Below, piece after piece: positions 11,046-58,243 of a stretch of DNA of 64,000 nucleotides. Positions within the stretch are counted from its first letter, which is position 1; every line of letters begins with the position of its first letter. Source of the stretch: Chloroflexota bacterium (GTDB taxonomy: Bacteria > Chloroflexota > Anaerolineae > UBA2200); contig JACIWX010000003.1 of NCBI GenBank assembly GCA_014360755.1, positions 283,678-347,677 of the forward strand, read 5' to 3'. Under the pieces are notes generated by a model. The model was given only the letters and a program-made list of their open reading frames with translations, did not search any database and was not told the origin of the DNA. Position numbers and translations under genes: made by a program.

Positions 11046-11699
11046 TCAATCAAAGACCACCACTTCTTTCCCGGCTAGTTTTTCCACAATCTTGGCTGCG
11101 ATGAGTTCCATGTGCGAGTTATACTTGACAAAATCCAGGTTGTCCGAGGGAACGGTGAGCACTGGGCATAGCGAGAAGCGTTCAATCCACTGTTCGTAGA
11201 GCTGATTCAATTGTTCCAAATATTCGGGGGAGACATCCCGCTCGAAGTCACGTCCGCGCATGCGGATGCGCTGTATCAAGGTGGGAACGGAAGCGCGCAG
11301 GTAGACTACCAGGTCCGGTGGAGGCAAGAACAGCGTCATTGCTTCATACAGTTCGCGGTAGGTGCGATAGTCCCGCTCGGTCATGTGTCCCTGGCGGTAC
11401 AGGTTTTCGGCAAAGATCTCGGCGTCCTCATACACACTGCGGTCCTGTACCACGGTACCTGGTCGGTCTAGGATTTGGCGATGGTGGCGCAAGCGGCGCG
11501 AGAGGAAGAAAATCTGGGAGTGGAAACTCCATTGGCGCATGTCCTTGTAGAAATCAGCCAGATAAGGGTTGTCATCTACGGCTTCATAGAAAGCCTCCCA
11601 GCCTAACCTCTCGCTCAACAGCGCCGTAAGCGTTGACTTGCCTACCCCGATGTTTCCCGCAATAGCGATAAATTTCTTCATCTGGCTCTCCTCACTCAT
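11046..11699 (-). CDS. deoxynucleoside kinase (dCK/dGK family)
   Basis: P-loop IAIAGNIGVGKST, and the EAVDDNPYL, FQ.QIFFL and ERS motifs of Gram-positive deoxyadenosine/deoxyguanosine kinases. Confidence 0.8.
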   Translation of the reverse strand: MSEESQMKKFIAIAGNIGVGKSTLTALLSERLGWEAFYEAVDDNPYLADFYKDMRQWSFHSQIFFLSRRLRHHRQILDRPGTVVQDRSVYEDAEIFAENLYRQGHMTERDYRTYRELYEAMTLFLPPPDLVVYLRASVPTLIQRIRMRGRDFERDVSPEYLEQLNQLYEQWIERFSLCPVLTVPSDNLDFVKYNSHMELIAAKIVEKLAGKEVVVFD

Positions 11700-31316: not shown

Positions 31317-33410
31317 ATGAGCAACCTAAGCGACCGATCTACATTGCCTGCGGAACCGCTTCCTCCATGTCAGGTTGCCTGTCCAGCACACACCGATGTC
31401 CGGGGCTATATCCACGCCATCGCGCGCGGAGATTTTGAAGAAGCCTACCGTATAGCGCGCGAACCCAATCCCTTGCCTTACATCTGCGGCAAGGTTTGTG
31501 CTCATCCCTGTGAGACCGAATGCCGACGCGGTGACGTTGATGAGCCCGTCGCCATCTGTGCGCTGAAGCGTTTCGCGACAGAGCAACACGACCTGAGCAA
31601 AGGCCATGCGCCAGGGCTAACCGTCGCAGAGCCAAAGGAGGAAAAAGTAGCGATCGTCGGCTCAGGCCCCGGCGGCCTGACCGCTGCCCATGACCTGGCA
31701 CGCATGGGTTATAAAGTTACCGTCTTCGAAGCTTACCCCAAAGTTGGCGGCATGATGCAATATGGCATTCCTCTCTATCGCTTGCCGCGTGAGACCATTG
31801 ACCTTGAAACGGCCCCCCTGAAGGATCTAGGCGTCGAGTTCGTCACTAATCAGCGGGTTACCGATGTAGACGCCTTGCTCGCAGATGGCTACAAAGCAGT
31901 ATTCCTGGCCGTTGGTTCTCATGTGGGACGCAAGCTACGCATTCCCAATGCAGACCTGCCTGATGTCTGGTTGAACACGGAATTCCTGCGGCGGGTGGCT
32001 TTGGGAGAGAAGATTGACCTGAGAGGACGCCACGTGCTGGTGCTGGGAGGAGGCAACGTAGCCATAGATGTGGCACGCACAGCATTGCGCCTGGGTGCAG
32101 CCGAGGTTTCCATGACTTGTTTGGAGAGCTGCACCACACAGCCAGCACATCCTTGGGAAATCAAGGAGGCTGTGGAAGAGGGCGTGCAGATGTTCCATGA
32201 CCGCACATTCAAAGAAATTGTCGCTGAGAATGGCAAAGTCAAGGGCGTGCGCTGCGTCAAGGTGAACTTCCGTGGCTTCTTGCCAACTGGTGCGCCGGAC
32301 ATGGATGAATTCCCCGAAACAGAGCATGTCCTCCCGGCAGATTTGGTCATTTTTGCGATTGGCCAGGGCCCTGACCTCAGTTTCCTGCCCCAAGATGGCT
32401 CTATTGCTCAGACACCACGGCGCACAATCCAAGTCAATCCTGTTACCTTGGCTACTACCAAACCAGGCGTCTTTGCCGGTGGGGATGCCGTCACTGGTGT
32501 GGGATTTATTATTGATGCTATTGCAGCAGGGCATCGCGCTGCTCGCTCCATAGACGCTTACCTGCGAGGTCTTGATCCGGCTTCTGTGCAGCCTCCTGAG
32601 CCGCAGAAGCTCAATGATCTGCAACAAAAGACCATCTCCCACATCCGCCACCTGAAGCGCGAAGAGATGCCCATGTTGGATGTCAACCAACGCAAGTTCA
32701 CCTTTGACGAAGTATACCTAGGCTATACGGAGGCACAGGCTATCCGCGCCGCGCATCGCTGCCTTACTTGTGGCGCGGGTGCGCGAGTAGAGGAAACCAA
32801 GTGCATTGCTTGCCTCACCTGCGTGCGGGTCTGCCCTTATGAAGTGCCATTACTGGCGCGTGGCACTGCAAATGTGCCTGTAGATCAGTGTCAAGCCTGT
32901 GGCATTTGCGCGACCGAGTGCCCGGCGAAAGCGATCTCGATGAAACTCTATTCCGATGAGGACATGATCAAACAGATTCGCGATGCGGTGCGCAAGGCCA
33001 AGTACAATGGCGAACCGGCCATTGTAGGCTTTGCCTGTCGCTATTGTGCCTATGCTGGCGAGGATGCGAACGTAGTCAAAGCAAGCCTGCCGGCGAATGT
33101 GCAAACCATTGACGTGCTGTGCACGGGGAAGGTAGATGCTCTGTACCTGCTGAAGGCCTTCGAATTTGGTGCCGATGGCGTATTTGTGGCAGGTTGTCTG
33201 GAAGGCGAGTGTCACAATGACAAGGGCAATGTCCACGCTGCAAAACGCGTGGCTTACGTAAAAGGATTGCTGGATGAACTCGCTCTGGGCAATGCACGGC
33301 TGGAAATGTTCCACATGTCCCCTGACCAATGCGCCAACATGGCCGAGGTCGTCAGCACACTGATTACAAAGGTCAAAGAATTGGGACCTAGTCCGGTGAG
33401 GAGAAGCTAA
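31317..33410 (+). CDS. fusion oxidoreductase: GltD/NfnB-like FAD-NAD(P) domain + 2x[4Fe-4S] ferredoxin + MvhD-like domain
   Basis: N-terminal Cys cluster (CQVACPAHTD...CGKVCAHPCETEC) and dinucleotide fold GSGPGGLTAAHDLARMGYKVTVFE. Two CxxCxxCxxxCP motifs (CIACLTCVRVCP, CQACGICATECP). The C-terminus (VGFACRYCAYAGED...LCTGKVD...) matches the methyl-viologen-reducing hydrogenase delta-subunit family. Confidence 0.7.
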   Translation: MSNLSDRSTLPAEPLPPCQVACPAHTDVRGYIHAIARGDFEEAYRIAREPNPLPYICGKVCAHPCETECRRGDVDEPVAICALKRFATEQHDLSKGHAPGLTVAEPKEEKVAIVGSGPGGLTAAHDLARMGYKVTVFEAYPKVGGMMQYGIPLYRLPRETIDLETAPLKDLGVEFVTNQRVTDVDALLADGYKAVFLAVGSHVGRKLRIPNADLPDVWLNTEFLRRVALGEKIDLRGRHVLVLGGGNVAIDVARTALRLGAAEVSMTCLESCTTQPAHPWEIKEAVEEGVQMFHDRTFKEIVAENGKVKGVRCVKVNFRGFLPTGAPDMDEFPETEHVLPADLVIFAIGQGPDLSFLPQDGSIAQTPRRTIQVNPVTLATTKPGVFAGGDAVTGVGFIIDAIAAGHRAARSIDAYLRGLDPASVQPPEPQKLNDLQQKTISHIRHLKREEMPMLDVNQRKFTFDEVYLGYTEAQAIRAAHRCLTCGAGARVEETKCIACLTCVRVCPYEVPLLARGTANVPVDQCQACGICATECPAKAISMKLYSDEDMIKQIRDAVRKAKYNGEPAIVGFACRYCAYAGEDANVVKASLPANVQTIDVLCTGKVDALYLLKAFEFGADGVFVAGCLEGECHNDKGNVHAAKRVAYVKGLLDELALGNARLEMFHMSPDQCANMAEVVSTLITKVKELGPSPVRRS

Positions 33411-33411
33411 C

Positions 33412-34080
33412 ATGATCAAAGCACAACAAAAACCCATCGCCGAGATCAAGGCATTGATCGCTCCATACCACAGAATCCTGATCCTTGGCTGTGGTACATG
33501 TGTTACCATCAGTTTTGCCGGTGGCGAGAAAGAGGTTGGATTGCTGGCTTCCAGCCTGCGCATTGCTTCGGCTATGGAGGGACAGGATAAAATATTCGCT
33601 GAAGCAACTGTGCAGCGCCAGTGTGAATGGGAGTTCATTGATGCTGTTGCGGAACAGATTCAGCAAGCAGATGCCGTTCTCTCTCTCGCTTGTGGCATTG
33701 GGGTGCAAGCCCTAGCCGAGCGCTATCCCGATAAGGTTGTCCTGCCTGGTGTGAATACCACCTTCCTAGGCATGGCGGTGGAGCACGGCGTCCTGGTAGA
33801 GCGTTGCCGTGCCTGCGGTGATTGCATCCTGGGCTTGACTGGTGGCGTGTGTCCTATTGCGCGCTGTGCCAAAAACCTGCTCAATGGCCCCTGTGGTGGC
33901 TCGCAGAATGGCAAATGCGAGGTTAATCCGGAGCTTGACTGTGCCTGGCAGCTCATCTATGACCGCTTAGCCAGATTGGGACAACTAGACCGCTTGGCCG
34001 CCCTGATGCCATACAAGGATTGGTCTAAGGACTATGACGGCGGCCCACGTAAGATTGTAAGGGAGGATCTGAGGCTATGA
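33412..34080 (+). CDS. metV: MetV-like methylene-tetrahydrofolate reductase small/C-terminal-domain subunit
   Basis: 222 aa. Cys-rich (GCGTC...CRACGDC...CPIARC) zinc-ribbon-containing protein immediately upstream of, and overlapping, metF, as in acetogen metV-metF pairs. Confidence 0.65.
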   Translation: MIKAQQKPIAEIKALIAPYHRILILGCGTCVTISFAGGEKEVGLLASSLRIASAMEGQDKIFAEATVQRQCEWEFIDAVAEQIQQADAVLSLACGIGVQALAERYPDKVVLPGVNTTFLGMAVEHGVLVERCRACGDCILGLTGGVCPIARCAKNLLNGPCGGSQNGKCEVNPELDCAWQLIYDRLARLGQLDRLAALMPYKDWSKDYDGGPRKIVREDLRL

Positions 34081-35000
34081 AAGTCGGCAGTAATCTCGAA
34101 AAAGTGCTCACCAGCGGCTACTTTGCCGCTACTGGGGAATTGGGCCCTCCCAAAAGCGCTGACCCAGGAGTGATCCGCCATAAAGCGAGCCTGCTCAAGG
34201 GGTACGTGGACGCGGTCAACATCACCGATAACCAGACAGCCATTGTCCGTATGTCGAGCATCTCTGTGGGCATCATGCTATTGCAATTGGGGCTAGAGCC
34301 CACGATTCAAATGACGTGTCGTGACCGCAATCGCTTGGCGATTCAATCCGACCTGCTGGGGGCAGCTGCCCATGGCGTGAAGAACCTGCTCTGTCTGACA
34401 GGCGACCACCAACGCTTTGGCAACCATCCCACAGCCCGTGGGGTATACGACCTGGATTCCATCCAGCTGATCCAGATGGTCAAAACGATGCGCGATGAGA
34501 AAAAGTTCGCTTGCGGCGAAGAAATGGATGTCGAGCCACGTTTCTTTATCGGGGCAGCGGAAAACCCCTTTGCAGACCCATTTGATTACCGGCCTTATCG
34601 CTTGGCGAAGAAGATTGCGGCAGGAGCGGACTTTATACAGACTCAGCTTATTTACAATGTACCCAAGTTCAAAGAGTTCATGAAGCGGGTTTGTGATCTA
34701 GGTTTGCACGAAAAGTGTTACATCCTGGCTGGGGTTGGTCCCATTAAAAGCGTCGGTATGGCTCGTTATATGCAGACCAGCGTCCCTGGTATGGACGTGC
34801 CTGAAGAAATTGTGGCACGGTTGAAGGGGGTGCCAAAGGATCAAGTGCGCAAAGAGGGCATCAAGCAGTGCGCGGACATTATCTCTGAAATACGGGAGAT
34901 CCCAGGCGTCGCCGGCGTACACGTTATGGCCATCGAATGGGAAGAGGCCGTGCCCGAAATCCTGGAACTGGCAGGACTGCTGCCACGGCCAAAGGTATAA
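34077..35000 (+). CDS. metF: 5,10-methylenetetrahydrofolate reductase
   Basis: MTHFR TIM-barrel motifs (VNITDNQTAIVRMSS, LCLTGDH). 307 aa. Confidence 0.85.
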   Translation: MKVGSNLEKVLTSGYFAATGELGPPKSADPGVIRHKASLLKGYVDAVNITDNQTAIVRMSSISVGIMLLQLGLEPTIQMTCRDRNRLAIQSDLLGAAAHGVKNLLCLTGDHQRFGNHPTARGVYDLDSIQLIQMVKTMRDEKKFACGEEMDVEPRFFIGAAENPFADPFDYRPYRLAKKIAAGADFIQTQLIYNVPKFKEFMKRVCDLGLHEKCYILAGVGPIKSVGMARYMQTSVPGMDVPEEIVARLKGVPKDQVRKEGIKQCADIISEIREIPGVAGVHVMAIEWEEAVPEILELAGLLPRPKV

Positions 35001-43030: not shown

Positions 43031-44899
43031 ATGATCGTTGAAGTCAAGTCCCCAGTACCGAGCGATATTGAAATTGCTCAGGCAGCTAAGCTGCGACCTA
43101 TCCGCGAGGTGGCCGAAGAGTTGGGCCTCTCAGAAGATGACCTTGACCTCTATGGCAAGTACAAAGCCAAGGTCCATCTAGACGTGCTAGAGCGCCTGAA
43201 GGACCGCCCCAACGCCAAGTACATTGATGTAACCGCCATTACCCCCACCCCGCTTGGCGAAGGGAAAACGGTAACCACCATCAGCCTCAGCCAAGGCCTG
43301 CACTATATCGGCAAGAAAGTCTTCACCTGCATCCGGCAACCCTCACAAGGTCCCACCTTCGGCATCAAGGGAGGTGCGGCCGGCGGTGGTTATGCCCAAA
43401 TCGTCCCAATGGAAGACTTTAACTTGCATCTCACCGGCGATATCCATGCCGTAGGTGCAGCCAACAACTTGCTTGCTGCTGCCATTGATGCCCGCATCAT
43501 GCACGAGGACGAGATGAGCGATGAGAGGCTGCTCAAAGCCCTCTGCCCAGATGACAAGTTCGCCCCGTGGATGTATAAGCGGCTCCAGAAGCTGGGCATC
43601 CAGGCGGAAAAACCATCCGACCTGAGTCCAGAGGACCGGCGGCGCTTCGCCCGTCTGGACATTGACCCCTACAGCATTACTCTAAACCGCGTCATTGACA
43701 TCAATGACCGCGCGATCCGCAATGTGGTTATTGGCTTGGGCACCAAAGGCGACGGACGGCCTCGCCAGACCGGCTTTGATATCACGGTCGCAAGCGAAGT
43801 GATGGCCATCCTGGCTTTGGCTACCAGCCTAAAGGACTTGCGTGAACGCATCGGGCGTATGGTCATCGGCACGGACAAGAACCGTAATCCGATCACAGCT
43901 GAGGACTTGGGCGTGGCTGGCGCCATGACGGTTCTACTCAAGGATGCGCTGATGCCTAACCTGATGCAGACCTTGGCAGGTACCCCCGCTTTCGTGCACG
44001 CCGGGCCATTTGCCAACATTGCCCACGGCAATAACTCGATCATCGCGGACATGATTGGGCTGAAACTAGTCTCAGGCGGCTACTTGGTCACAGAATCCGG
44101 ATTCGGTGCGGACTGTGGCATGGAGAAATTCTTCGACATCAAGTGCCGCTACAGCGGGCTGATACCCAACTGCGTGGTGATGGTCGCCTCCATCCGTGCT
44201 CTGAAGATGCACGGCGGTGGTCCGAGAGTGGTTGCAGGCGTGCCCCTGAACCCAGCATATAAACAAGAGAACCTCGAGTTGCTAGAAAAGGGCCTTTGCA
44301 ACCTAGAAGCCAATATCAAGATCGCCCTCAAATTCGGCATCCCTGTCGTAGTAAGCATTAACAAGTTCACTACAGATACGGACAGAGAGATCGCCCTCGT
44401 AAAAGAGGCGGCCATAGCTGCTGGCGCAGAAACGGCTGTGGTCAATGAGGGTTGGGCGAAAGGCGAGGCGGGTGCTGCTGAATTGGCTGAAGCTGTGGTG
44501 GCCGCCTGCGAAAAACCCAGCAACTTCCGATTCCTTTACCCGCTGGATATCCCAATCAAGGACAAGATCGAGATCATCGCCAAAGAAATCTATGGTGCTG
44601 ATGGCGTCATCTTTGAAGCGGCAGCCCAGCAAAAAATCAAACTCTATACCGAACTCGGGTACGACAAACTGCCCATTAATATGGCTAAGACGCACCTATC
44701 ACTGTCTCACAACCCAGATTGGAAAGGTGTGCCCAAGGGCTATATGCTGCCCGTGCGCGATATCCGGGCCTCGGTCGGCGCAGGATTCCTATATCCGCTC
44801 TGCGGAGCCATGCGCACCATGCCCGGACTGCCATCTCGCCCAGTGTTCATGGACATTGACATTGACGTAGAGACTGGCAAAGTCATCGGACTTTCATAA
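43031..44899 (+). CDS. fhs: formate--tetrahydrofolate ligase
   Basis: [24 protein letters not shown]-loop and 623-aa length. ATG at 43031 after AAAGGAGG. Confidence 0.9.
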
Positions 44900-44911
44900 G
44901 CCTTTGGGAAG

Positions 44912-44946
44912 AGAGGTGGAGGAGTAATGCTCCTCCACCTCTTTGG
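44912..44946 (+). terminator. putative intrinsic terminator after fhs
   Basis: 13-bp perfect stem AGAGGTGGAGGAG / CTCCTCCACCTCT with loop TAATG, followed by a short U tract (TTTGG). Confidence 0.45.
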
Positions 44947-44964
44947 CAGCCCTTGGGAGCATTC

Positions 44965-44992
44965 TTCAAAACGCACTTATCTGCTGTATAAT
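44965..44992 (+). promoter_or_regulatory. putative sigma70 promoter of the acs (CODH/ACS) operon
   Basis: TTCAAA (44965-44970), 16-bp spacer, perfect TATAAT (44987-44992), about 70 nt upstream of the first gene's GTG. Confidence 0.45.
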
Positions 44993-45002
44993 TCATCTAA
45001 TA

Positions 45003-45017
45003 GGATAATTTTTATCC
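45003..45017 (+). promoter_or_regulatory. perfect palindrome GGATAA-TTT-TTATCC at +4..+19 of the acs promoter (candidate operator)
   Basis: 15-bp perfect palindrome immediately downstream of the predicted -10. Confidence 0.3.
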
Positions 45018-45064
45018 ACATGCGGTTCTGCAGCGACCGCACAGCAAACTGAAGGAGGGGAAAA

Positions 45065-45403
45065 GTGCCAGTGGGAAAAGTAGTTTTCGATGTGCCGAAA
45101 ATGTACGCCGATCACCACGTTGAGGCAGTGCGCAAGGCTCTGCTAGCATTGCCGGGCATTGAGGAGATTATAGCCAGCAGCGCCCTAAAGCGCGTGGTGG
45201 TTCGTTACGATACAGAGCGCCTCAACCCAGGCGCAATCGAACAAGCCTTGCAGGCTGCAGGGTATGCGCCAGGAGAGGAGTGGGAACTACCCAAGTTACC
45301 GGAAGGCAAAGAAGACCATTCTCCATGGTTCCAGGTCATCCCAAGGGTAACGACAACGGATAGGCGCGATCTGGAGATGTCCGGAGATTTCCGAAAATAT
45401 TAA
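45065..45403 (+). CDS. HMA-fold (ferredoxin-like beta-alpha-beta-beta-alpha-beta) small protein lacking CxxC; candidate metallochaperone of the acs operon
   Basis: GTG start 5 nt after GAAGGAGGGG. VVFDVPKMYADHHVEAVRKALLALPGIEEI...VVVRYDTERLNPGAIEQALQAAGYAP matches heavy-metal-associated domain topology with M-T-C-x-x-C replaced by M-Y-A-D-H-H. It is the first gene of the operon, directly upstream of cooS. Confidence 0.5.
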   Translation: MPVGKVVFDVPKMYADHHVEAVRKALLALPGIEEIIASSALKRVVVRYDTERLNPGAIEQALQAAGYAPGEEWELPKLPEGKEDHSPWFQVIPRVTTTDRRDLEMSGDFRKY

Positions 45404-45446
45404 ATTTTGCAGTTGCTTGAGATTTCATGAGAAGGAGCAAGATCCG

Positions 45447-47414
45447 ATGACAGACCAAAAATCTATAGACCCAGCGGTGTGCGATTTGCTGGAGATATGT
45501 GAATCCGAAGGCATTTCCACCGCTTTTGACCGCGCAGAGCAGATGAAACCATGCCCGATTGGTAGCAAAGGGGCTTGTTGCAAGAACTGCGCCATGGGTC
45601 CCTGCCGTCTCACCAAAGAGGGCCAAGTAGGCATTTGCGGAGCTACCATTGACACCGTCGCAGCGCGCAACTTTGCACGCATGGTTGCGGCTGGTTCGGC
45701 TGCCCATTCCGACCACGGTCGGGACATGGCGTTGACTCTTTTGGCAGCGGCTACAGGGCATGCTCCAGATTACAAGATACGCGATGTGCGCAAACTCTAT
45801 GAGGTTGCCTCATTCCTGGACGTGAAAACAGATGGCCGCCCAGTCAATGATATCGCTAAGGAGGTGGCTGAGAAGGCGCTGATTGAATTTGGCCGCCAGC
45901 AAGGGAATATCATCTACCTCCAACGCGCACCGCGTAAGCGTCAGCAAATTTGGCAAAACCTGGGCATTGCCCCACGCGGGATTGACCGCGAAGTGGTGGA
46001 TATCATGCACCGCACCCATGCTGGAAACGATCAGGATTATAAGAGTTTGCTGATGTCCTCGCTGCGCACTGCCCTGGCTGACGGCTGGGGTGGTTCGATG
46101 CTTTCCACCGACATTACGGACATCCTCTTTGGCTCTCCTGTGCCGCTTGCGGCCAGGGCGAACATGGGCAACCTTAGCGAAGACCAGGTGAACATTGTCG
46201 TCCATGGCCATGAGCCAACCCTGTCCGAAATGATCCTAGTGGCGGTCAATGACCCGGAGATGATCGAATATGCTAAATCCAAGGGCGCCAAAGGCATCAA
46301 CCTAACCGGCATTTGTTGTACCGCCAACGAAACGTTGATGCGTCAGGGCGTGCCCACTATTGGCAATTTCCTCAGCCAGGAACTGGCAATTGCCACCGGT
46401 GCGATAGACCTGATGGTGGTGGATATCCAGTGCATCATGCAAGCCTTGGCTCCTCTGACCAAGCAGTTCCATACCCTCTTGGTGACCACTTCTGCAAAGG
46501 CGCACATTGACGGTGTTACTCATATCGAATTCGACGAGCACCGCGCTCTGGAAATTGCCAAGAATATCGTCAAAATGGGCATTGACAATTTCGTCAACCG
46601 CGGGGATGTGCATATTCCCAAAGATATTGACCAAATGGTCGTTGGTTTCTCACACGAGTATATCAACTACGCCTTGGGCGGTTTTTACCGTGGTTCCTTC
46701 CGTCCCTTGAATGATGCCGTCATCCAGGGGCGGCTGCGCGGCGTTGCGGGGGTGGTGGGGTGCAATAATGCGCGCACTTGCCAGGATGCAGCCCATACGT
46801 ATATTGTGCGCGAACTGATCAAGAACGATGTGCTAGTCGTGATGACTGGGTGCGGAGCAATCGCTTGCGCCAAATATGGCTTCCTGTCTCCGGAGGCAGC
46901 GCAGTACGCCGGACCAGGCTTGCGCGAGATCTGCGAGGCGGTGGGCATCCCGCCGGTGCTGCATATGGGCAGTTGCGTGGATAACACGCGTATCCTCACT
47001 GTGCTCAGCCAAATGGCCACCGAAGGCGGCTTGGGCGAAGACATTGCTGACATCCCAGGCGTTGGCTTTGCCCCGGAATGGATGAGTGAAAAAGCTATTT
47101 CCATTGGTTGTTACTTTGTCGGTTCTGGCGTATACACCATCTTTGGCAGCGAATCGCCTGTAGCCAACAGCCCCGCTGTGGTGCGCTTTATGAGCGAGGG
47201 TTGGGAAGAACACGTGGGCGGCAAGTTGGAATTTATCCCTGATCCAGAGGAAGCCGTCCGCAAAGCCTTGGAGCACATTGATAAGAAACGCGCTGCTCTA
47301 GGGTTAGTAGAGTACGACCCCACACGTTATGGTCAGAGCGGCGATGCGCTTATGCTCAAGCTGCTAGAGAAGGTAGAAGAGGGGACGCTCAACCTATACA
47401 GCGCCAAGTTATAG
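45447..47414 (+). CDS. cooS: carbon monoxide dehydrogenase catalytic subunit (Ni,Fe-CODH; AcsA/CooS)
   Basis: N-terminal B- and D-cluster Cys (CPIGSKGACCKNCAMGPCR) and C-cluster ligands (HGHEP..., CTGC...). 655 aa. ATG at 45447 after GAGAAGGAG. Confidence 0.9.
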   Translation: MTDQKSIDPAVCDLLEICESEGISTAFDRAEQMKPCPIGSKGACCKNCAMGPCRLTKEGQVGICGATIDTVAARNFARMVAAGSAAHSDHGRDMALTLLAAATGHAPDYKIRDVRKLYEVASFLDVKTDGRPVNDIAKEVAEKALIEFGRQQGNIIYLQRAPRKRQQIWQNLGIAPRGIDREVVDIMHRTHAGNDQDYKSLLMSSLRTALADGWGGSMLSTDITDILFGSPVPLAARANMGNLSEDQVNIVVHGHEPTLSEMILVAVNDPEMIEYAKSKGAKGINLTGICCTANETLMRQGVPTIGNFLSQELAIATGAIDLMVVDIQCIMQALAPLTKQFHTLLVTTSAKAHIDGVTHIEFDEHRALEIAKNIVKMGIDNFVNRGDVHIPKDIDQMVVGFSHEYINYALGGFYRGSFRPLNDAVIQGRLRGVAGVVGCNNARTCQDAAHTYIVRELIKNDVLVVMTGCGAIACAKYGFLSPEAAQYAGPGLREICEAVGIPPVLHMGSCVDNTRILTVLSQMATEGGLGEDIADIPGVGFAPEWMSEKAISIGCYFVGSGVYTIFGSESPVANSPAVVRFMSEGWEEHVGGKLEFIPDPEEAVRKALEHIDKKRAALGLVEYDPTRYGQSGDALMLKLLEKVEEGTLNLYSAKL

Positions 47415-47498: not shown

Positions 47499-49781
47499 AT
47501 GTCAAGGTATATTGCAACCCGTGCTATTCGCGGCGCGAATCTGATCGTTGCCGAAGCCGAGAGGATGCTGAAAGAGGCTATTGCAGAACTGGGGCCAGAT
47601 ACGCCGGTCAAATTTACCAACACCGCTTATTATCTCCCCGTTATCCTGGCTTTCACCGGGCGTGAGGTGAGCAAACTGGGTGACCTTGTGCCCGTTATTG
47701 AGGATGCAAAGCGGATTTTACATCCTATCCCGGGCGATAAACTGTGGTTACCCTACCTTGGCGAGACGCTGGACTGCGGTATGGCCACGCTCCTCGCTGA
47801 GGAAGCCATCGAGGGCATCCGCTTCGCGCGTGGTCTGGAGCCACAACCGATTACCTGGGAGGGCAGTTATATCCCCAGCACCAGTTTCACCTCCCCTGAT
47901 ATGGAAGCACAAGCCGGGAAGCGCCTCAATGGGCCTATTGATGACATTCAATTGCGCGCTTGGGGCATTCAACTGGTAGATGGCCGCATGCCCGGCTTTG
48001 CTGCGATCGTTGGCTGCGCCAAGAGCAATGAAGTAGCAGTGCAAATTGTGCGCGAACTGCAGCAGCGCAACATCCTCGTCTTCCTGTGTGGCAACGTCAA
48101 TGGACGCAGTATTATCCACCAATTGATGGAAGAAGGGGTCGAGATGGGTTATGACACCTATATCATCCCCTTCGGTACGGACACCATCGCTGCGATCTAC
48201 CCTCTCGGTTTTGCCGCACGCAGTGCACTGACCTTTGGCGGGCTGAAACCAGGCCAGGCGCGCGAAATCCTCCTGTATAACAAGTACCGTGTTTTCGCCT
48301 TTGTGTTAGCCCTGGGTGAAGTAGATGACCTGAAATACGCCACTGCTGCAGGTGCAATTAACTATGGCTTCCCGACGATTGCCGATACCGTGATCCCCCA
48401 GATATTGCCTACCGGCGTTACAACCTACGAGCATGTCATCAGCATGCCCTTTGATGACATCGAGGGGAAAGACGACCTGGAACGTGCGAAGAAGCTGGTG
48501 CAACGCTGCATCGAAGTGCGCGGGGTGAAAATTAAGATCACCGAAGTGCCCATTCCCGTGCCCTATGGTTCTGCCTTTGAAGGCGAACGTGTGCGCAAGG
48601 CAGATATGCGCGTGGAATTTGGCGGCAAGTACAGTCGCTGCTTCGAGTACTTGAAGATGTCCGACTTTGACGCGGTGGAAGATGGCAAGATCACCGTGGT
48701 CGGGCCCGGTTTCGAAGATGTGCCGCCAGAGGGTTCGATGGACATGGGCATTGTGGTCGAAGTAGCCGGGCGCAAAATGCAGGAGGACTTTGAGCCTGTG
48801 CTGGAGCGGCAAATTCACTACTTCATCAATGGCGCATCTGGCATCCAGCACATTGGCCAGCGCGATATCGCCTGGATCCGCATCAGCAAAGCGGCAGCAG
48901 AGAAGGGCTTTAAGCTGGAACACTTTGGGAAAATTCTGTATGCCCGCTTCCATGGGGACTTTGGCGCCATTGTGGACAAAGTGCAGGTTACCATCTACAC
49001 TGACAAAGCCAAGATGGAGGAGTGGCTAGCGAAAGCACGCGAAGCCTACGATCGCCGCAACAGGCGTCTGGCAGATATGACTGATGAGTCGGTAGAAGAA
49101 TTCTACAGTTGTACTCTGTGCCAGAGCTTTGCCCCCAACCATGTCTGCGTTGTGTCACCAGAACGACTGGGGCTGTGTGGCGCGTACAACTGGCTGGATT
49201 GCAAAGCCTCCCATCAGATTAACCCTACCGGGCCGAATCAACCCATCCGAAAAGGTACTTGCGAGGACCCTGTTTATGGCATTTTCAGCGGGGTGAATGA
49301 ATTCGTATACCAGCATTCTCATCAGTCCGTGCAGCAGGTTTCCATGTACTCCATCATGGTGAACCCCATGACCGCCTGCGGCTGCTTCGAATGCATTGCG
49401 ATGGTCATCCCCGAAGCCAATGGCATTATGGTCGTTTCCCGCGAAGACCCGAGCATGACCCCTGCTGGCATGACCTTCTCCACGCTGGCTGGCATGGCGG
49501 GTGGTGGATTGCAGACACCTGGCGTGATGGGGCATGGCAAGTATTATCTGACAAGCAAAAAGTTCATTTCTGCGGATGGTGGCTTCAAGCGCGTGGTTTG
49601 GATGTCTTCCTTCCTCAAAGAGACCATGGCTGAGGAGCTCAAGGCGGTTGCCGAGCGCGAGGGCGACCCAGATCTCATTGACAAGATCGCTGATGAACGG
49701 GTAGCGACCACTGTAGATGAGTTATTGCCCTACCTGGAGGAGAAGGGGCATCCTGCGTTGACCATGCCGCCGTTGTTCTAA
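47499..49781 (+). CDS. acsB: acetyl-CoA synthase (CO-methylating acetyl-CoA synthase complex beta subunit, AcsB)
   Basis: 760 aa. A-cluster Cys-Gly-Cys region (...CGCFEC...) and the conserved ACS N-terminal domain. Confidence 0.9.
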   Translation: MSRYIATRAIRGANLIVAEAERMLKEAIAELGPDTPVKFTNTAYYLPVILAFTGREVSKLGDLVPVIEDAKRILHPIPGDKLWLPYLGETLDCGMATLLAEEAIEGIRFARGLEPQPITWEGSYIPSTSFTSPDMEAQAGKRLNGPIDDIQLRAWGIQLVDGRMPGFAAIVGCAKSNEVAVQIVRELQQRNILVFLCGNVNGRSIIHQLMEEGVEMGYDTYIIPFGTDTIAAIYPLGFAARSALTFGGLKPGQAREILLYNKYRVFAFVLALGEVDDLKYATAAGAINYGFPTIADTVIPQILPTGVTTYEHVISMPFDDIEGKDDLERAKKLVQRCIEVRGVKIKITEVPIPVPYGSAFEGERVRKADMRVEFGGKYSRCFEYLKMSDFDAVEDGKITVVGPGFEDVPPEGSMDMGIVVEVAGRKMQEDFEPVLERQIHYFINGASGIQHIGQRDIAWIRISKAAAEKGFKLEHFGKILYARFHGDFGAIVDKVQVTIYTDKAKMEEWLAKAREAYDRRNRRLADMTDESVEEFYSCTLCQSFAPNHVCVVSPERLGLCGAYNWLDCKASHQINPTGPNQPIRKGTCEDPVYGIFSGVNEFVYQHSHQSVQQVSMYSIMVNPMTACGCFECIAMVIPEANGIMVVSREDPSMTPAGMTFSTLAGMAGGGLQTPGVMGHGKYYLTSKKFISADGGFKRVVWMSSFLKETMAEELKAVAEREGDPDLIDKIADERVATTVDELLPYLEEKGHPALTMPPLF

Positions 49782-49911: not shown

Positions 49912-50298
49912 ATGGCTGAATTCGTTAAGGATCTGATGCGTCATGGGGCTGTTACTTGTGGTTTGGATACCACCGTTAAAGAAATTGCCCAAATCATGGT
50001 GTTTAACCGCATTCGCTATGTCGTTGTAACGGATGATCATGGAGCCGTCGCTGGCATTATCTCAGCGCGCAGTATTCTGAAGGCATGGGGCAAAGATTTG
50101 GAAAAGACCACGGCAAAAGATATCCTTCTACCGTACACGATCACGACCACTCCTGACACACCTCTTGCAGAAGCCATTAAGCTCATGCAGCAGAGGCGTA
50201 TCCAGCATTTAGTTATTGTCAGCGACAGCCCACGACCCAAGCGAGTGGTAGGTATCTTGAGTGCTTCCGATATTGTCCGGTATATGGCCAGAACCTAA
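49912..50298 (+). CDS. CBS-pair domain protein (paralog 1 of 3)
   Basis: Two CBS motifs (VTCGLDTTVKEIAQIM...RYVVVTDD; ...HLVIVSD...VGILSASDIV). Confidence 0.75.
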   Translation: MAEFVKDLMRHGAVTCGLDTTVKEIAQIMVFNRIRYVVVTDDHGAVAGIISARSILKAWGKDLEKTTAKDILLPYTITTTPDTPLAEAIKLMQQRRIQHLVIVSDSPRPKRVVGILSASDIVRYMART

Positions 50299-50347
50299 AA
50301 AACCGATAGAGAGATGGAGTGCAAATAGGCTCATGATGGAGGAGAAA

Positions 50348-50764
50348 ATGGCTTTGGTTAGAGATTATATGCATCGTGGAGTGATCACTTGCCATTTGGA
50401 CACTCCGGTCAAAGAAATTGCCAAGATTATGGATGCCAATAACATCCGCAGTGTAGTGGTTACCGATGACCGTGGTGAAGTGTGGGGGATTGTTTCACTC
50501 ATCAGCATCCTCAAAGCGTGGGGGAAAGACTTGGAAAAGCTGACCGCCGAGGATATCCTGCAACCATACACCGTTACTATTTCCCCAGAGTCGCCGATCG
50601 AAGAGGCAGTAAAACTGCTGCAGAAGAAAAGGATCGAGCACTTGGTGATTGTTCATCCTGGAGTGGTGCGGCGAGCCGTGGGCATTCTCACGACCTTTGA
50701 CATTATTCAGCACATGGCTGGGATGCCTGCAGGTACCTACCGCGCAAGTATGCAATTGGGATAA
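50348..50764 (+). CDS. CBS-pair domain protein (paralog 2 of 3)
   Basis: About 55% identical to paralog 1 (MALVRDYMHRGVITCHLDTPVKEIAKIM...). ATG at 50348 after GGAGGAG. The ORF-track start at 50261 overlaps paralog 1. Confidence 0.7.
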   Translation: MALVRDYMHRGVITCHLDTPVKEIAKIMDANNIRSVVVTDDRGEVWGIVSLISILKAWGKDLEKLTAEDILQPYTVTISPESPIEEAVKLLQKKRIEHLVIVHPGVVRRAVGILTTFDIIQHMAGMPAGTYRASMQLG

Positions 50765-50817
50765 CAAGGCGATCGAGAAGGGATTGCTCGAGGGTTTTGG
50801 ATGAAGGGAGCAGGGTT

Positions 50818-51243
50818 ATGGCAATGAACGCAAAAGAAAAAATGATGGAAAAGCGAGTGGAAGATGTCATGCACTATGGCGTGATCACTTGCCGCACGGA
50901 CACCCTGCTGAAAGAGGTGGTGCGCATCATCACAGACACTGATGTGCATGCCCTGGTTGTCATCCACGACAATGGCAATGTTGCTGGCATCGTCTCACAC
51001 ATGGATTTGCTCCGGCTGTACGGCCACAACTTGCTCGAATACAAGGCAGAGGACGTGATGACGCCCAATGTCATTACCATCAGCCCAGAGGCAACTGTCA
51101 AAGAAGCGGTGGACTTGATGCTGAAGCACAATATCCGCCGGCTCCTGGTCACGGAAAAGACACCCGAGGGCGAGCGCCCCATAGGCGTGATATCCACAAC
51201 TGATGTAATCAGGGACATGCGCGAGCAGCCCTGGTTTTGGTAA
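50818..51243 (+). CDS. CBS-pair domain protein (paralog 3 of 3)
   Basis: Same architecture (VEDVMHYGVITCRTDTLLKEVVRII...). ATG at 50818 after GAAGGGAG. Confidence 0.7.
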   Translation: MAMNAKEKMMEKRVEDVMHYGVITCRTDTLLKEVVRIITDTDVHALVVIHDNGNVAGIVSHMDLLRLYGHNLLEYKAEDVMTPNVITISPEATVKEAVDLMLKHNIRRLLVTEKTPEGERPIGVISTTDVIRDMREQPWFW

Positions 51244-53748: not shown

Positions 53749-54834
53749 TTGGAGTCTGGTCATTGGGAGTCCTACTCGGGAGCAGAGTCCGTGCTATATT
53801 TTGTGTCCGTAAAGTTAGCCCTGGGCTATCTGCTTTTCTCCTTCCTGTCCGCCCTAGGGATCCTGCAGTTGGTTGCTACGCGTTATCGTTTGCGCGGCTT
53901 GGCTTTTCTCGATCATGCGCAGCACGGCGCGAAAGGTTACGCCCTGGCTGCATTGCTGATCGTCTGCGGGGCGTTGCTCTTTTTCGCAGGGCAATGGCAC
54001 GCTATTCTCACGCCAGGACCGGCCGGTAGCGAACTGGCTTTCCTTTTTGGACTCAGCGCCACGGGAGCGCTAGCGGTTACCTGTATTGTTACATCCATTG
54101 TACAAAAACGGCGTCCTGGTTTCCTGACACAAGCCATTACTGACCAAGGCGAGACAGTAACGGTCGGACGTGGAACAGGACGCCTTTACCTACCACATAA
54201 CCTGAACGCTCCTGCACCTGCTGTGGTCCTTGTGCCAGGTTTGAACAACAATGAAGGGGACCTCACGATCCTGGCACACCAAATGGCAGAGGAGGGCTTC
54301 GCTGCGCTGGTGATTTGCCTGGATAGAGGATCGTGTTTGTATCCGGAGGTACTGACCATTGTGCCAGCAGCCATATCCATGCTTAGTAAGCGACCTGAAA
54401 TAGATGAACAGCGGCTGGGCATTGTAGGGCATGGTTTGGGCGGGGATCTCGCTATCCGCGCAGCGAGTACGGATAAGCAAATCAAAGCAGTGGCGGCTTT
54501 GGCTCCTGTCCTTGTGGAGGTGCAGCCAAGCCTGGATTTGTTGCGCGAAATGCCCTATCTAGAGGCATTGCGCTGGGCACGAGACCGGAGCCGCGCTAAC
54601 TTGCGCGCTGCATTGAACGCGCTCGAATACGGAAGCAGGATTGCTCCTAGGTCCTTCCTCCTGTTGTATGGAGCAGAGGACCGCTTGGTAAGCAGAACAC
54701 CCACGGAAGCGTGGCAAGCGCAACAAGCCACCTCCATGCGTTTGGAAGTGATCGAAGGTGTGGGGCATTTTGATCTGGTAAAGCATCCGGTAGCGGTGCG
54801 AGTCCTGATACAGTGGTTGAGGGAGCATCTGTAA
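53749..54834 (+). CDS. membrane-anchored alpha/beta-hydrolase-fold protein (nucleophile elbow reads GHGLGG; possible pseudo-hydrolase)
   Basis: 3-4 N-terminal TM helices, then an alpha/beta-hydrolase core (VVLVPGLNNNEGD...LGIVGHGLGGDLAIRAA...GVGHFD). The Gx-S-xG nucleophile position appears to be occupied by Gly. Confidence 0.55.
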   Translation: MESGHWESYSGAESVLYFVSVKLALGYLLFSFLSALGILQLVATRYRLRGLAFLDHAQHGAKGYALAALLIVCGALLFFAGQWHAILTPGPAGSELAFLFGLSATGALAVTCIVTSIVQKRRPGFLTQAITDQGETVTVGRGTGRLYLPHNLNAPAPAVVLVPGLNNNEGDLTILAHQMAEEGFAALVICLDRGSCLYPEVLTIVPAAISMLSKRPEIDEQRLGIVGHGLGGDLAIRAASTDKQIKAVAALAPVLVEVQPSLDLLREMPYLEALRWARDRSRANLRAALNALEYGSRIAPRSFLLLYGAEDRLVSRTPTEAWQAQQATSMRLEVIEGVGHFDLVKHPVAVRVLIQWLREHL

Positions 54835-54838
54835 ACGC

Positions 54839-55417
54839 ATGGCTATTGATTGGGCTCTGTTTCAATTCGCCAATGGGCTGGCAGGCCGTTCGCCTATTCT
54901 CGATCGCATCATCCAGATACTCATGAATGACTATGCCTTGACCACGGCGATGGTGCTGGTGCTGTTTGCGTTGTGGTTCAGCGGCAGCAGTCTAGAAGCA
55001 CGAGAGCGGAATCAGCGTGCTGTGCTTTCCACTATCGTTGCCGTTTTGCTGGCTAACCTTATCGTCAAGGCATGCAACTTGATCTTCTATCGGCCGCGTC
55101 CTTTTGCCTATCACGAGGTAACGCTGCTGTTCTACCATCCATCGGACTCTTCTTTTCCCAGCAACGCGGCTACGGTGGGCTTCTGCATTGCGGCTTCTGT
55201 CTGGCTGTTTAACCACAAGGCGGGCTTTCTTTTGTACACCCTGTCTTGTCTGCTTGCCCTGGCACGGGTATGCGGCGGCGTGCACTATCCCAGCGACATC
55301 CTGGGTGGGCTGTTGGTCAGCACGTTTTCCGCATGGCTAGTGATTAGGAAATGGCACTTCCTAGACCGCTGGTGGATGGCGATCATCCACTGGCTACGAC
55401 GCTGGTTATTGGCTTGA
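54839..55417 (+). CDS. PAP2-superfamily (type 2 phosphatidic acid phosphatase-like) membrane protein
   Basis: Motif I-like KACNLIFYRPRP and motif III ARVCGGVHYPSD (R-x5-H-x3-D) are present. The motif II position reads FPSNAA instead of PSGH. Confidence 0.6.
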   Translation: MAIDWALFQFANGLAGRSPILDRIIQILMNDYALTTAMVLVLFALWFSGSSLEARERNQRAVLSTIVAVLLANLIVKACNLIFYRPRPFAYHEVTLLFYHPSDSSFPSNAATVGFCIAASVWLFNHKAGFLLYTLSCLLALARVCGGVHYPSDILGGLLVSTFSAWLVIRKWHFLDRWWMAIIHWLRRWLLA

Positions 55418-57478: not shown

Positions 57479-58243
57479 ATGACGATGACCATTGCAGTCG
57501 CTGGAAAAGGTGGCACGGGCAAAACTACCTTTGCCGCGCTGCTGATTAAATACATACGTTCCCGGAACCTGGGTTATATCCTAGCCATTGATGGGGACCC
57601 CAGTGCTAACCTGAACCTGGTGCTGGGCATGGATCTTCCAGACACCATTGGCCACATCCGCGAGGACACACTGGCGCAGATCAGCCGGGGTCGTTACGAT
57701 ACGTCTATCCCTAAGGCAGATTTTTTCGAGTACCGCATCAACGAGGCATTAGCGGAGGGGGATAGGATAGACCTGATTGCCATGGGCCGCCCAGAAGGGC
57801 CTGGTTGCTACTGTGCTGCGAATAGCATCCTGCGCACCGTGATTGACCGCCTGGGCAATCAATATGACTTTGTGGTGATAGACAACGAAGCAGGATTGGA
57901 GCACATCAGCCGCCAGACCACACGCGATGTAGACAAGTTGTTCATCGTTACGGATATGACCATGCGCGGTATTGCTGCCGCCGGGCATATCGTACGCCTT
58001 ATCAAGGAACTGGGCACACGTGTTCATGAAACGTACCTAGTGATCAATCGGGCGGAGAGCGATATCCCCCCGTTGATGCGGGAGGAAATCGCACGGCTTG
58101 GGTTGAACCTCATTGGCACGTTGCCCCAGGACAGGACGATCACTGAGTTCGACTTGACGGGCAGGCCGTTGATCGAGATCAGCGAAGAGTCCCCCATTTA
58201 CAAGGCAGTGACAGAAATCGCTGCCAAAGCAGGCATTCGCTGA
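57479..58243 (+). CDS. cooC: CODH nickel-insertion accessory ATPase CooC/AcsF
   Basis: Deviant Walker A AVAGKGGTGKTT, MinD/ParA fold and CxC-like GPGCYCAAN motif. 254 aa. Confidence 0.85.
   Translation: MTMTIAVAGKGGTGKTTFAALLIKYIRSRNLGYILAIDGDPSANLNLVLGMDLPDTIGHIREDTLAQISRGRYDTSIPKADFFEYRINEALAEGDRIDLIAMGRPEGPGCYCAANSILRTVIDRLGNQYDFVVIDNEAGLEHISRQTTRDVDKLFIVTDMTMRGIAAAGHIVRLIKELGTRVHETYLVINRAESDIPPLMREEIARLGLNLIGTLPQDRTITEFDLTGRPLIEISEESPIYKAVTEIAAKAGIR

Follow-up and report, generated by a model that had tools for sequence, protein, structure and literature searches.

A cysteine-free HMA-fold protein encoded ahead of cooS in a Chloroflexota Wood-Ljungdahl cluster: a candidate nickel-handling module

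Why does the operon for the nickel enzyme complex of a Chloroflexota bacterium, CO dehydrogenase/acetyl-CoA synthase (CODH/ACS), open with a gene for a cysteine-free protein that has the fold of the heavy-metal-associated (HMA) metallochaperones? The gene lies directly before cooS on contig JACIWX010000003.1 of assembly GCA_014360755.1 (Anaerolineae, UBA2200), at 45065..45403 (+ strand) of the 64-kb stretch that was analysed, hereafter the window; the 112-aa product of this open reading frame is referred to as the window protein. An earlier note, made from the DNA letters alone, had described an HMA-fold protein, suggested to be a His-based Ni (or Fe) chaperone, and a possible palindromic operator upstream of its gene. 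Nickel delivery to the C- and A-clusters is only partly understood, and CooC, CooT and CooJ are patchily distributed, with debated mechanisms (PMC6006190). The interpretation that we favour, if tentatively, is that the window protein belongs to an undescribed subfamily of cysteine-free HMA-fold proteins dedicated to the CODH/ACS operon, of which the free form would be a nickel chaperone and a form fused to a helix-turn-helix (HTH) domain a sensor. We found no description of an HMA family with an Asp-His-His (D-H-H) loop linked to CODH in the full-text papers that were searched, including a review of CODH maturation (PMC6006190), and such a protein is not mentioned in the passages of two papers on CODH genomic context that were reached by targeted searches inside them (PMC13056359, PMC6344411). 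We regard it as a variant of an established fold family, found in a functional setting new to that family and not amounting to a new kind of system, with a function predicted from sequence.

An HMA fold without cysteine at the head of CODH/ACS operons

Pfam, AlphaFold2 and Foldseek all identify an HMA (ferredoxin-like) domain at approximately residues 5-70 (45077..45274, + strand). The position-by-position alignment with HMA domains that the earlier note had claimed holds: the Pfam HMA profile (PF00403) matches residues 7-67 on profile positions 1-61/62 without a gap, at 37.9 bits versus a gathering cut-off of 24.8. The AlphaFold2 model has a predicted local distance difference test score (pLDDT) of 92-97 over residues 1-70, with strands at residues 3-9, 32-38 and 43-49 and helices at 16-27 and 55-64, that is, a beta-alpha-beta-beta-alpha fold in which the last strand is not called by DSSP. 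In Foldseek, this model matches MerP (1osd) with an E value of 9e-6, a TM score (target) of 0.88 and a root-mean-square deviation (rmsd) of 1.0 Å over 67 columns, and its top 50 PDB matches, which superpose with an rmsd close to 1 Å, are almost without exception metallochaperones of the HMA type or ATPase HMA domains. At E <= 10, the only Pfam matches are HMA, CT_C_D, NapD and HMA_2, of which NapD (13.6 bits, E 0.075) is below its cut-off of 28; in agreement with the claim that the protein is distinct from CooT, CooJ and CooC, there are no Pfam matches to those families.

The departure from known HMA proteins lies in the metal loop. In the PDB sequence alignment, PKMYADHH of the window protein lies ungapped over EGMTCAAC of domain 2 of B. 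subtilis CopA, which places Ala15 at the position of the first cysteine and His18 at that of the second. The codons GAT CAC CAC (45110..45118, + strand) encode Asp16-His17-His18 at the start of helix 1, where the xxC of CxxC would be, and this alignment agrees with the proposal that D-H-H stands in place of CxxC. With Ala15 and His18 at the two Cys positions, the GMxCxxC motif is absent from the window protein, and the NCBIfam models for CopZ, CopP, MerP and TIGR00003 score at 19-30 bits, all under their cut-offs of 62-112.

The form found in the window, which we call type 1, has 122 homologs of about 110 aa at E <= 1e-3, and the conservation counts given here refer to the 120 listed homologs, which are 52-98% identical. 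All are metagenomic or come from metagenome-assembled genomes (MAGs), those that are named belong to Anaerolineae or Chloroflexi, and every named source is a MAG, with no cultured host found among them. The D-H-H is present in all 120, D16-H17-H18-V19 is invariant, so that the His pair singled out previously is indeed conserved, and the longer string MYADHHV occurs in 114. Because any cysteine at all is present in only 9 of the 120, a thiolate Cu(I) site can be excluded. Another His, the one in EGKEDHSPW, had been emphasized in the earlier note; it is present in the window protein and conserved in only 5 of 115 homologs, its position being usually occupied by D, N, S or E.

What had been overlooked is the conserved C-terminal tail, the last 27 residues of the protein (residues 86-112; 45320..45400, + strand), with the pattern SxWF...R-V-T-x-T-N-x-x-D-L-E-M-S-G-D-F-R-K-Y. 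In the type-1 alignment, S86, W88, R94, G107 and R110 are invariant, and MSGDFRKY ends 86 of the 120 proteins. Despite an alignment of 134 sequences, the pLDDT of the tail is 54-71, whereas the deeper alignment raised the confidence of the core; such conservation combined with low pLDDT is typical of a motif that becomes ordered only on a partner or ligand.

The position of the gene is conserved as well. From a scan of one genome per species, which yielded 135 relatives, 80 loci (L001-L080) were kept. Nearly all of these are from Chloroflexota (Anaerolineae, 'Chloroflexia'), and four are from Actinomycetota, of which one is a MAG of Thermoleophilia, one a MAG of Gaiellales, and the remaining two have labels that go no further than phylum or class. 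The pathway proteins of the window were mapped onto the loci by tblastn. Downstream DNA extends for 1 kb or more in 72 of them, and in 69 of these, cooS begins within 400 nt downstream on the same strand, with acsB next wherever the locus reaches that far. The predicted linkage to cooS is thus conserved. In the other three, cooS is 1.6-4 kb further downstream, and in L018, the only exception inspected, the gap contains cooF-like and NuoE/NuoF-like genes. On the upstream side, fhs directly precedes the HMA gene in 36 of the 61 testable loci. No CopA/P1B-ATPase or cop regulator was seen among the neighbours, and those mapped are Wood-Ljungdahl genes. Two Actinomycetota loci, L043 and L045, have a gene resembling cooC immediately ahead of the HMA gene and in the same orientation, and the L043 translation of this gene contains the motif GCVCPEN as well as a Walker A; L041 and L074 also have such a gene close by, but on the opposite strand. 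In the Moorella operon, cooC stands at the head, the place taken by the HMA gene in the Chloroflexota cluster.

Two side observations concern the loci themselves. The cooF-like polyferredoxin and NuoE-/NuoF-like genes of L018 (10418-14190), also found in L006, form an NAD(P)H-linked electron module behind an HMA gene that is still the first. L079 (JAIWHF010000047.1) is labelled 'Methanosarcinales archaeon', but its HMA-cooS-acsB locus and upstream DNA are almost identical to those of the Anaerolineales loci L063 and L078, so it is probably mis-binned.

Relatives with other tails and fused domains

An exhaustive profile search extended the family to 2156 proteins at E <= 1e-3, of which 297 are found at E <= 1e-10, and [AGS]DHH is present in about 104 of the top 150 representatives. 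Three tail types can be distinguished: type 1, that of the window; type 2, with the pattern ...FFRHT...VSFAQ...RPLWPCPG...; and type 3, ...PCPGF[DE][FY]R. A search with a type-2 protein (P0227) gave 1174 proteins at E <= 1e-3, and all 120 of the listed ones carry both the D-H-H and the CPG motif. MAFFT aligns R94-x-T96 of the type-1 tail with FRHT and MSG with VSF; compared with type 1, type-2 and fused tails add a conserved His (in FRHT) and a conserved Cys (in PCPG). The type-2 genes are located 4 nt ahead of cooS-acsB, and on short contigs with type-2 or type-3 genes, the N-terminus of CooS comes next. Some Anaerolineales with the type-2 protein also encode a fused AcsB-AcsD of 1225 aa (CODH_A_N + CdhC + ACS_CODH_B_C + CdhD; L082 9645-13322 and L083 5342-9019).

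The D-H-H HMA domain occurs in two kinds of fusions, with a Cys-rich N-terminal domain and with a BldC-like HTH. The Cys-rich fusion (P0145, P0166, P0171 and P0172; L088 5574-6257) is encoded directly before cooS, and its additional domain, with the pattern CW..R...C..C......SCWE...PCC.AP..VTCDFC..YIEHR, has no Pfam match; it is reminiscent of the Cys-rich Fe-S/Zn domain of Archaeoglobus CopZ. The HTH fusions, of which there are hundreds of proteins in more than 100 clusters, come with tail types 1, 2 and 3, and their genes overlap or abut cooS. A search with one of them (P0264) gave 1067 proteins, probably including stand-alone type-2 forms, but the best 120 matches all span at least 90% of the fused query and have HTH_17/MerR Pfam domains; the HTH motif GGH[RY]R[YF] is present in 109 of these 120 and D-H-H in all. 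The fused HTH matches the BldC-DNA structures 6ama/6amk with 58.9 bits (E 2.5e-15) and also the HTH of 8jbs, which is deposited as a putative cobalamin-binding protein and which we take to be a CarH/LitR-type regulator. P0202, an apparent free type-3 protein, turned out to be a mis-called HTH fusion. In one locus of the HTH-fusion type, L085, a dodecin gene (11443-11652) is part of the CODH/ACS operon, with the CBS genes on one side of it and acsD on the other.

Upstream of the fused genes (L085 5182-5300; L086 ~3665; L087 4843-4960), a pair of palindromes stands in tandem, and direct repeats of GTKCAAAACG come after them. The palindrome common to the fused loci, TnnTGCATTTGCAnnA, reads ATGATGCATTTGCATCA in L085 and ATAGTGCATTTGCACTA in L087, a symmetric, compensatory difference between two distant loci. 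The palindromes and repeats are candidate operators of the BldC-like fusion regulators. Upstream of an HMA gene, TGCATTTGCA is found only in the fused loci L085-L087, and its two matches elsewhere fall within the operons of L082 and L083, where the HMA gene is over 5 kb away on the upstream side. As an operator candidate for the window gene, TGCATTTGCA / TGCANNTGCA was rejected, being absent both upstream of this gene and in the type-1 loci. Neither the 64-kb window (six-frame motif search, and tblastn with three HTH domains) nor L001-L080 (tblastn) contains a detectable BldC-like HTH. The window protein itself lacks a DNA-binding domain, which is present only in relatives such as P0146, P0264 and P0202, and its reading frame is closed on the upstream side by a TGA at 45050, at a distance of 15 nt from the start codon.

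The operon and its 5' region

The Wood-Ljungdahl cluster of the window is complete and encoded on the + strand, as judged by the translations of the open reading frames and, for nine products, by Pfam. It begins with an HdrA/MvhD-like gene (31317), metV, metF, fchA (40998), folD and fhs (ending at 44899), continues with the window gene, cooS/acsA, acsB, three CBS-pair genes, acsD and acsC, and ends with genes for an alpha/beta-hydrolase, a PAP2 protein and a RACo activase, followed by cooC/acsF (57479) and acsE. The window gene starts with GTG; since most homologs begin two residues later, the alternative GTG at 45071, with a product of 110 aa, is just as good a candidate for the start. A gap of 44 nt separates it from cooS/acsA (45447..47414, + strand), which has an ATG start and encodes the Ni-CODH subunit (Pfam Prismane, 561.8 bits); acsB, for the acetyl-CoA synthase subunit, follows at 47499..49781 (+ strand; Pfam CODH_A_N + CdhC + ACS_CODH_B_C). 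The only MinD-family ATPase of the cluster, of the CooC/AcsF type, is encoded at 57479..58243 (+ strand), with CbiA/AAA_31/NifH-type Pfam matches and GKGGTGKT Walker A and GCYC motifs in its translation, and is a possible partner of the window protein.

The Shine-Dalgarno sequence of the window gene, GAAGGAGGG (45051..45059, + strand), contains GGAGG 6 nt before the GTG. With a crude anti-Shine-Dalgarno duplex energy of -12.2 kcal/mol, compared with -7 to -9 kcal/mol for most other genes and -11.6 for acsE, it is the strongest in the cooS operon, as had been suggested along with the position directly before cooS, and AGGAGG precedes the gene in most related loci. Because a hairpin, a promoter-like site and this Shine-Dalgarno sequence separate it from fhs, the gene appears to be the first of its transcription unit. 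The hairpin (44909..44944, + strand; RNAfold dG -31.6 kcal/mol), just past the fhs stop (44899), has a perfect, GC-rich 16-bp stem and no U-tract, and a near-identical sequence is present in L016; the terminator scan did not report it because there is no T-run. It probably marks a transcript boundary ahead of the cooS operon, and may act there, between fhs and that operon, in termination, in RNA processing or in RNA stability. The promoter-like site TTCAAA-16 nt-TATAAT (44965..44992, + strand) agrees with the consensus at 10 of 12 positions and is the only one within 44700-45500, although shuffled sequences contain 0.8 +/- 1.0 such sites, so that it is not significant alone; its -10 element and flanks are kept in L016, the closest relative, whose flanking proteins are 96-98% identical to those of the window. 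A different promoter-like block, GTTTTACAGGyACACGGGTCTGTGGTATAAT (TTTACA-17-TATAAT), is well conserved at some 110-140 nt before the HMA gene in L002, L003, L004 and L058, with a variant in L007; the proteins of these four loci are only about 65-70% identical to that of the window, and the block is unlike the promoter-like site of the window.

Between the promoter-like site and the gene lies GGATAATTTTTATCC (45003..45017), the "perfect 15-bp palindrome" of the earlier note, which in fact pairs only in its outer six positions and is an inverted repeat with 6-bp arms and a 3-nt spacer (GGATAA-TTT-TTATCC). Could it serve as the operator at which the operon is controlled in response to CO, redox state or a metal? 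It sits at about +4..+18 of the only promoter-like site, and its exact sequence occurs once in the whole window. However, perfect repeats of the same geometry occur 29 times in the window, versus about 16 expected from length alone, its counterpart in L016, GGACAATCTTCATCC (GGACAA-TCT-TCATCC), has two asymmetric, non-compensated arm mismatches, and the approximately 220 nt upstream of the gene in the other loci (80 extracted) contain no copy, only stray single half-sites in five. Furthermore, no regulator gene was found nearby, and the repeat can fold as a hairpin in the 5' untranslated region (RNAfold), where a stabilising role is equally possible. The claim of a palindromic operator is therefore not supported: we rejected the repeat as a conserved operator and consider it improbable that it functions as one in the window alone; at best, it is a lineage-specific hairpin of the 5' untranslated region. 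A second small inverted repeat, TGCGGTT...GACCGCA (45021..45041, + strand), whose arms at 45021-45027 and 45035-45041 pair in the RNAfold prediction, has no conserved counterpart in L016. A riboswitch or other leader RNA (e.g. NiCo) was also rejected: no Rfam family matches the leader (44850-45500, E <= 10), and the nine sub-threshold matches listed include no riboswitch, only chance miRNA/snoRNA-level matches on the fhs hairpin.

Some other members of the cluster deserve mention. Three tandem stand-alone CBS-pair genes (49912-51243; Pfam CBS, 88-97 bits each) lie between acsB and acsD, and one to three copies are found at the same place in many related loci, which suggests nucleotide-dependent regulation of CODH/ACS at the protein level. 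The alpha/beta-hydrolase (PETase/DLH-like, with N-terminal hydrophobic segments) and the PAP2 phosphatase-family protein, encoded at 53749-55417 in the gap from acsC to the RACo gene, are unexpected members of an acs operon, and the pair is kept in at least 11 related loci (e.g. L001, L007, L010, L012, L015, L039, L046 and L060). At 31317-35000, a 697-aa fusion of an NAD(P)-linked pyridine-nucleotide-disulfide oxidoreductase (HdrA/GltD-like) with 4Fe-4S and MvhD/FlpD domains is encoded directly before metV-metF, which suggests a flavin-based electron-bifurcating methylene-tetrahydrofolate reductase module.

Proposed functions of the module and its place among known systems

How might such a protein serve CODH/ACS? 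According to the nickel-handling interpretation, Asp16-His17-His18 would provide a site of hard or borderline N/O ligands for a divalent metal, most plausibly Ni(II), given that CODH/ACS needs three Ni per alpha-beta unit and that the ligands are N/O donors. The site might be completed by a second protomer or a partner protein, as in metal-bridged HMA complexes and UreE, and the flexible conserved tail (...DLEMSGDFRKY) would dock onto a client, either CooS or the CooC/AcsF ATPase. The free protein would then supply or buffer Ni for the C-cluster and perhaps the A-cluster, whereas the HTH-fused module would signal to the operon's own promoter whether metal is bound. Such a split between chaperone and sensor mirrors the HMA paradigm of a free chaperone versus a fused regulatory domain, including CopZ-to-CopY transfer. 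That transfer, the CopY/CopZ pair, A. fulgidus CopZ and NikR form the background for HMA fusion partners, and the partners found here, a regulatory DNA-binding domain and a Cys-rich domain, mirror those of known metal-binding HMA modules.

Several points weigh against delivery of nickel by the free protein. Three consecutive residues at the N-terminus of a helix cannot all face one ion, and additional ligands would therefore be needed; the type-1 tail offers no conserved His or Cys. HTH-fused homologs are abundant at the same position, in operons without a separate free copy, which argues for a sensor over a delivery protein; the strong ribosome-binding site and the first place in the operon fit a stoichiometric subunit equally well; and some CODHs mature without dedicated accessory proteins (PMC6006190). 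A purely regulatory role, with the D-H-H HMA domain and the tail sensing a metal, the redox state or another signal, is the main rival interpretation, which we consider less likely than nickel handling. In most relatives, the module would be the effector domain of a one-component BldC-like factor that autoregulates cooS-acsB; this agrees with the union of HTH_17/MerR and HMA in one polypeptide, with the pairing of the GGH[RY]R[YF] motif and D-H-H in at least 104 of the 120 best P0264 matches, with the similarity of the fused HTH to 6ama/6amk and 8jbs, with genes that overlap or abut cooS, with the compensatory changes between L085 and L087 in TnnTGCATTTGCAnnA, and with the occurrence of fusions across all three tail types. 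The window form would act by protein-protein interaction, either with an HTH protein encoded elsewhere or with CODH/ACS itself, in the manner of the stand-alone CBS proteins of the operon. Against this role, a sensor without an output domain requires some further partner, the window protein has no DNA-binding domain and a TGA at 45050 ahead of its start, tblastn found no BldC-like HTH in the window or the 80 type-1 loci, and the operator candidate TGCATTTGCA is absent from both.

A structural role without any metal, as an extra subunit or a private folding or assembly chaperone with NapD-like logic, appears unlikely. The HMA fold would then be a scaffold, the D-H-H an interface or helix-capping element, and the tail would insert into CooS or AcsB. 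Production as the first gene with the strongest Shine-Dalgarno sequence, the 4-nt gap or overlap with cooS in relatives, which suggests translational coupling and stoichiometric production, and a tail that is conserved but of low pLDDT are all compatible with this role, as is the weak, sub-threshold NapD similarity, although 13.6 bits is far under the cut-off. Without a metal, however, it is difficult to account for an invariant Asp-His-His placed exactly in the metal loop of a fold that binds metals, the type-2 and fused tails add the FRHT His and the PCPG Cys, and an enzyme subunit fused to a DNA-binding domain would be odd. As for an ordinary copper chaperone, the label under which public annotations place such proteins (jgi: 'copper chaperone CopZ'), it draws on automatic annotation and on weak NCBIfam matches to CopZ, MerP and TIGR00003 that are far under their cut-offs; with both cysteines of CxxC gone, an essentially Cys-free family and Wood-Ljungdahl genes instead of a P1B-ATPase as mapped neighbours, this label is effectively refuted, and the reading behind it is extremely improbable.

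Returning to nickel handling, its most far-reaching version, which we regard as less likely than not, is that the D-H-H HMA domain with its tail is an unrecognised Ni(II) module of the Wood-Ljungdahl pathway of Chloroflexota and Actinomycetota. The free form would then be a fourth CODH/ACS maturation factor, next to CooC, CooT and CooJ, that docks by DFRKY onto CooS or the CooC/AcsF ATPase, and the fused form a NikR-like one-component regulator by which cooS-acsB is switched with the supply of metal. Given that the family is located almost exclusively at the head of CODH/ACS operons, it offers a new candidate for nickel-enzyme maturation. The hosts, Anaerolineae and their relatives with some Thermoleophilia and Gaiellales, are acetogen-like bacteria of the subsurface that form a large group and are mostly uncultured. 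The window protein could help to obtain active CODH/ACS by heterologous production. Apart from the CO sensors CooA and RcoM, the HTH-fused relatives would be the first candidate for a transcription factor dedicated to a bacterial CODH/ACS operon. In addition, a systematic mis-annotation as 'copper chaperone CopZ' is corrected.

The closest structural comparison is with CopZ, Atx1 and MerP (PF00403), which are likewise small and free-standing, with conserved residues in the beta1-alpha1 metal loop; MerP, CopZ, Atx1, CCS and the ATPase HMA domains superpose at 1.0-1.9 Å over about 66 residues, and HMA domains in general occur both free and fused to a larger protein. The window protein differs from CopZ in having D-H-H and no CxxC, in a 40-residue conserved C-terminal tail that CopZ is missing, and in a family position before cooS-acsB (69 of 72 loci) and not beside a P1B-ATPase. 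The best single-domain match among PDB sequences is the N-terminal domain of CzcP (4u9r; E 1.2e-4, residues 4-71 on 104-170), which is also HMA-like without CxxC at the aligned position ('GVWHERR'), but is part of a Cd/Co/Zn P1B-ATPase and has no D-H-H, conserved tail or CODH context.

With CooC, CooT and CooJ, the window protein shares a place in the CODH operon; in two Actinomycetota loci, the gene of the family comes right behind a cooC-like gene in the same orientation. The small size of the window protein and its wealth of candidate Ni ligands (His, Asp) are paralleled in CooJ, whose tail is His-rich and binds Ni (PMC6006190). The window protein is nevertheless unrelated to these factors in sequence, being only HMA by Pfam; cooCTJ of R. 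rubrum lie downstream of cooS, whereas the window-family gene lies upstream, and the family is tied to the bifunctional CODH/ACS.

Two further nickel proteins provide parallels. In UreE, the Ni metallochaperone of urease, the metal-binding domain is a ferredoxin fold of the Atx1 kind in which His residues bind Ni where the protomers of the dimer meet, and the metal is passed on to the SIMIBI GTPase UreG. By analogy only, the window locus likewise combines a ferredoxin-like fold, a proposed His-based Ni site and a SIMIBI-class NTPase (CooC/AcsF) in the operon of a Ni enzyme, but the position of the ligands and the domain composition differ, the window protein has no UreE_N or UreE_C match in Pfam, and UreE is absent from its top 50 Foldseek PDB matches. 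NikR joins a DNA-binding domain to a ferredoxin-like Ni-binding domain with a site of three His and one Cys. The window protein, without a DNA-binding domain and with a tail devoid of His or Cys, differs from it, and the HTH of the fused relatives is BldC/MerR-like, not ribbon-helix-helix, with no sequence similarity to NikR_C. In these relatives, however, an N-terminal DNA-binding domain is followed by a ferredoxin-like domain, as in NikR and CarH/LitR-type regulators, and by analogy, we infer that His17, His18, the FRHT His and the PCPG Cys of the type-2 and fused proteins may reproduce the three-His, one-Cys set of NikR.

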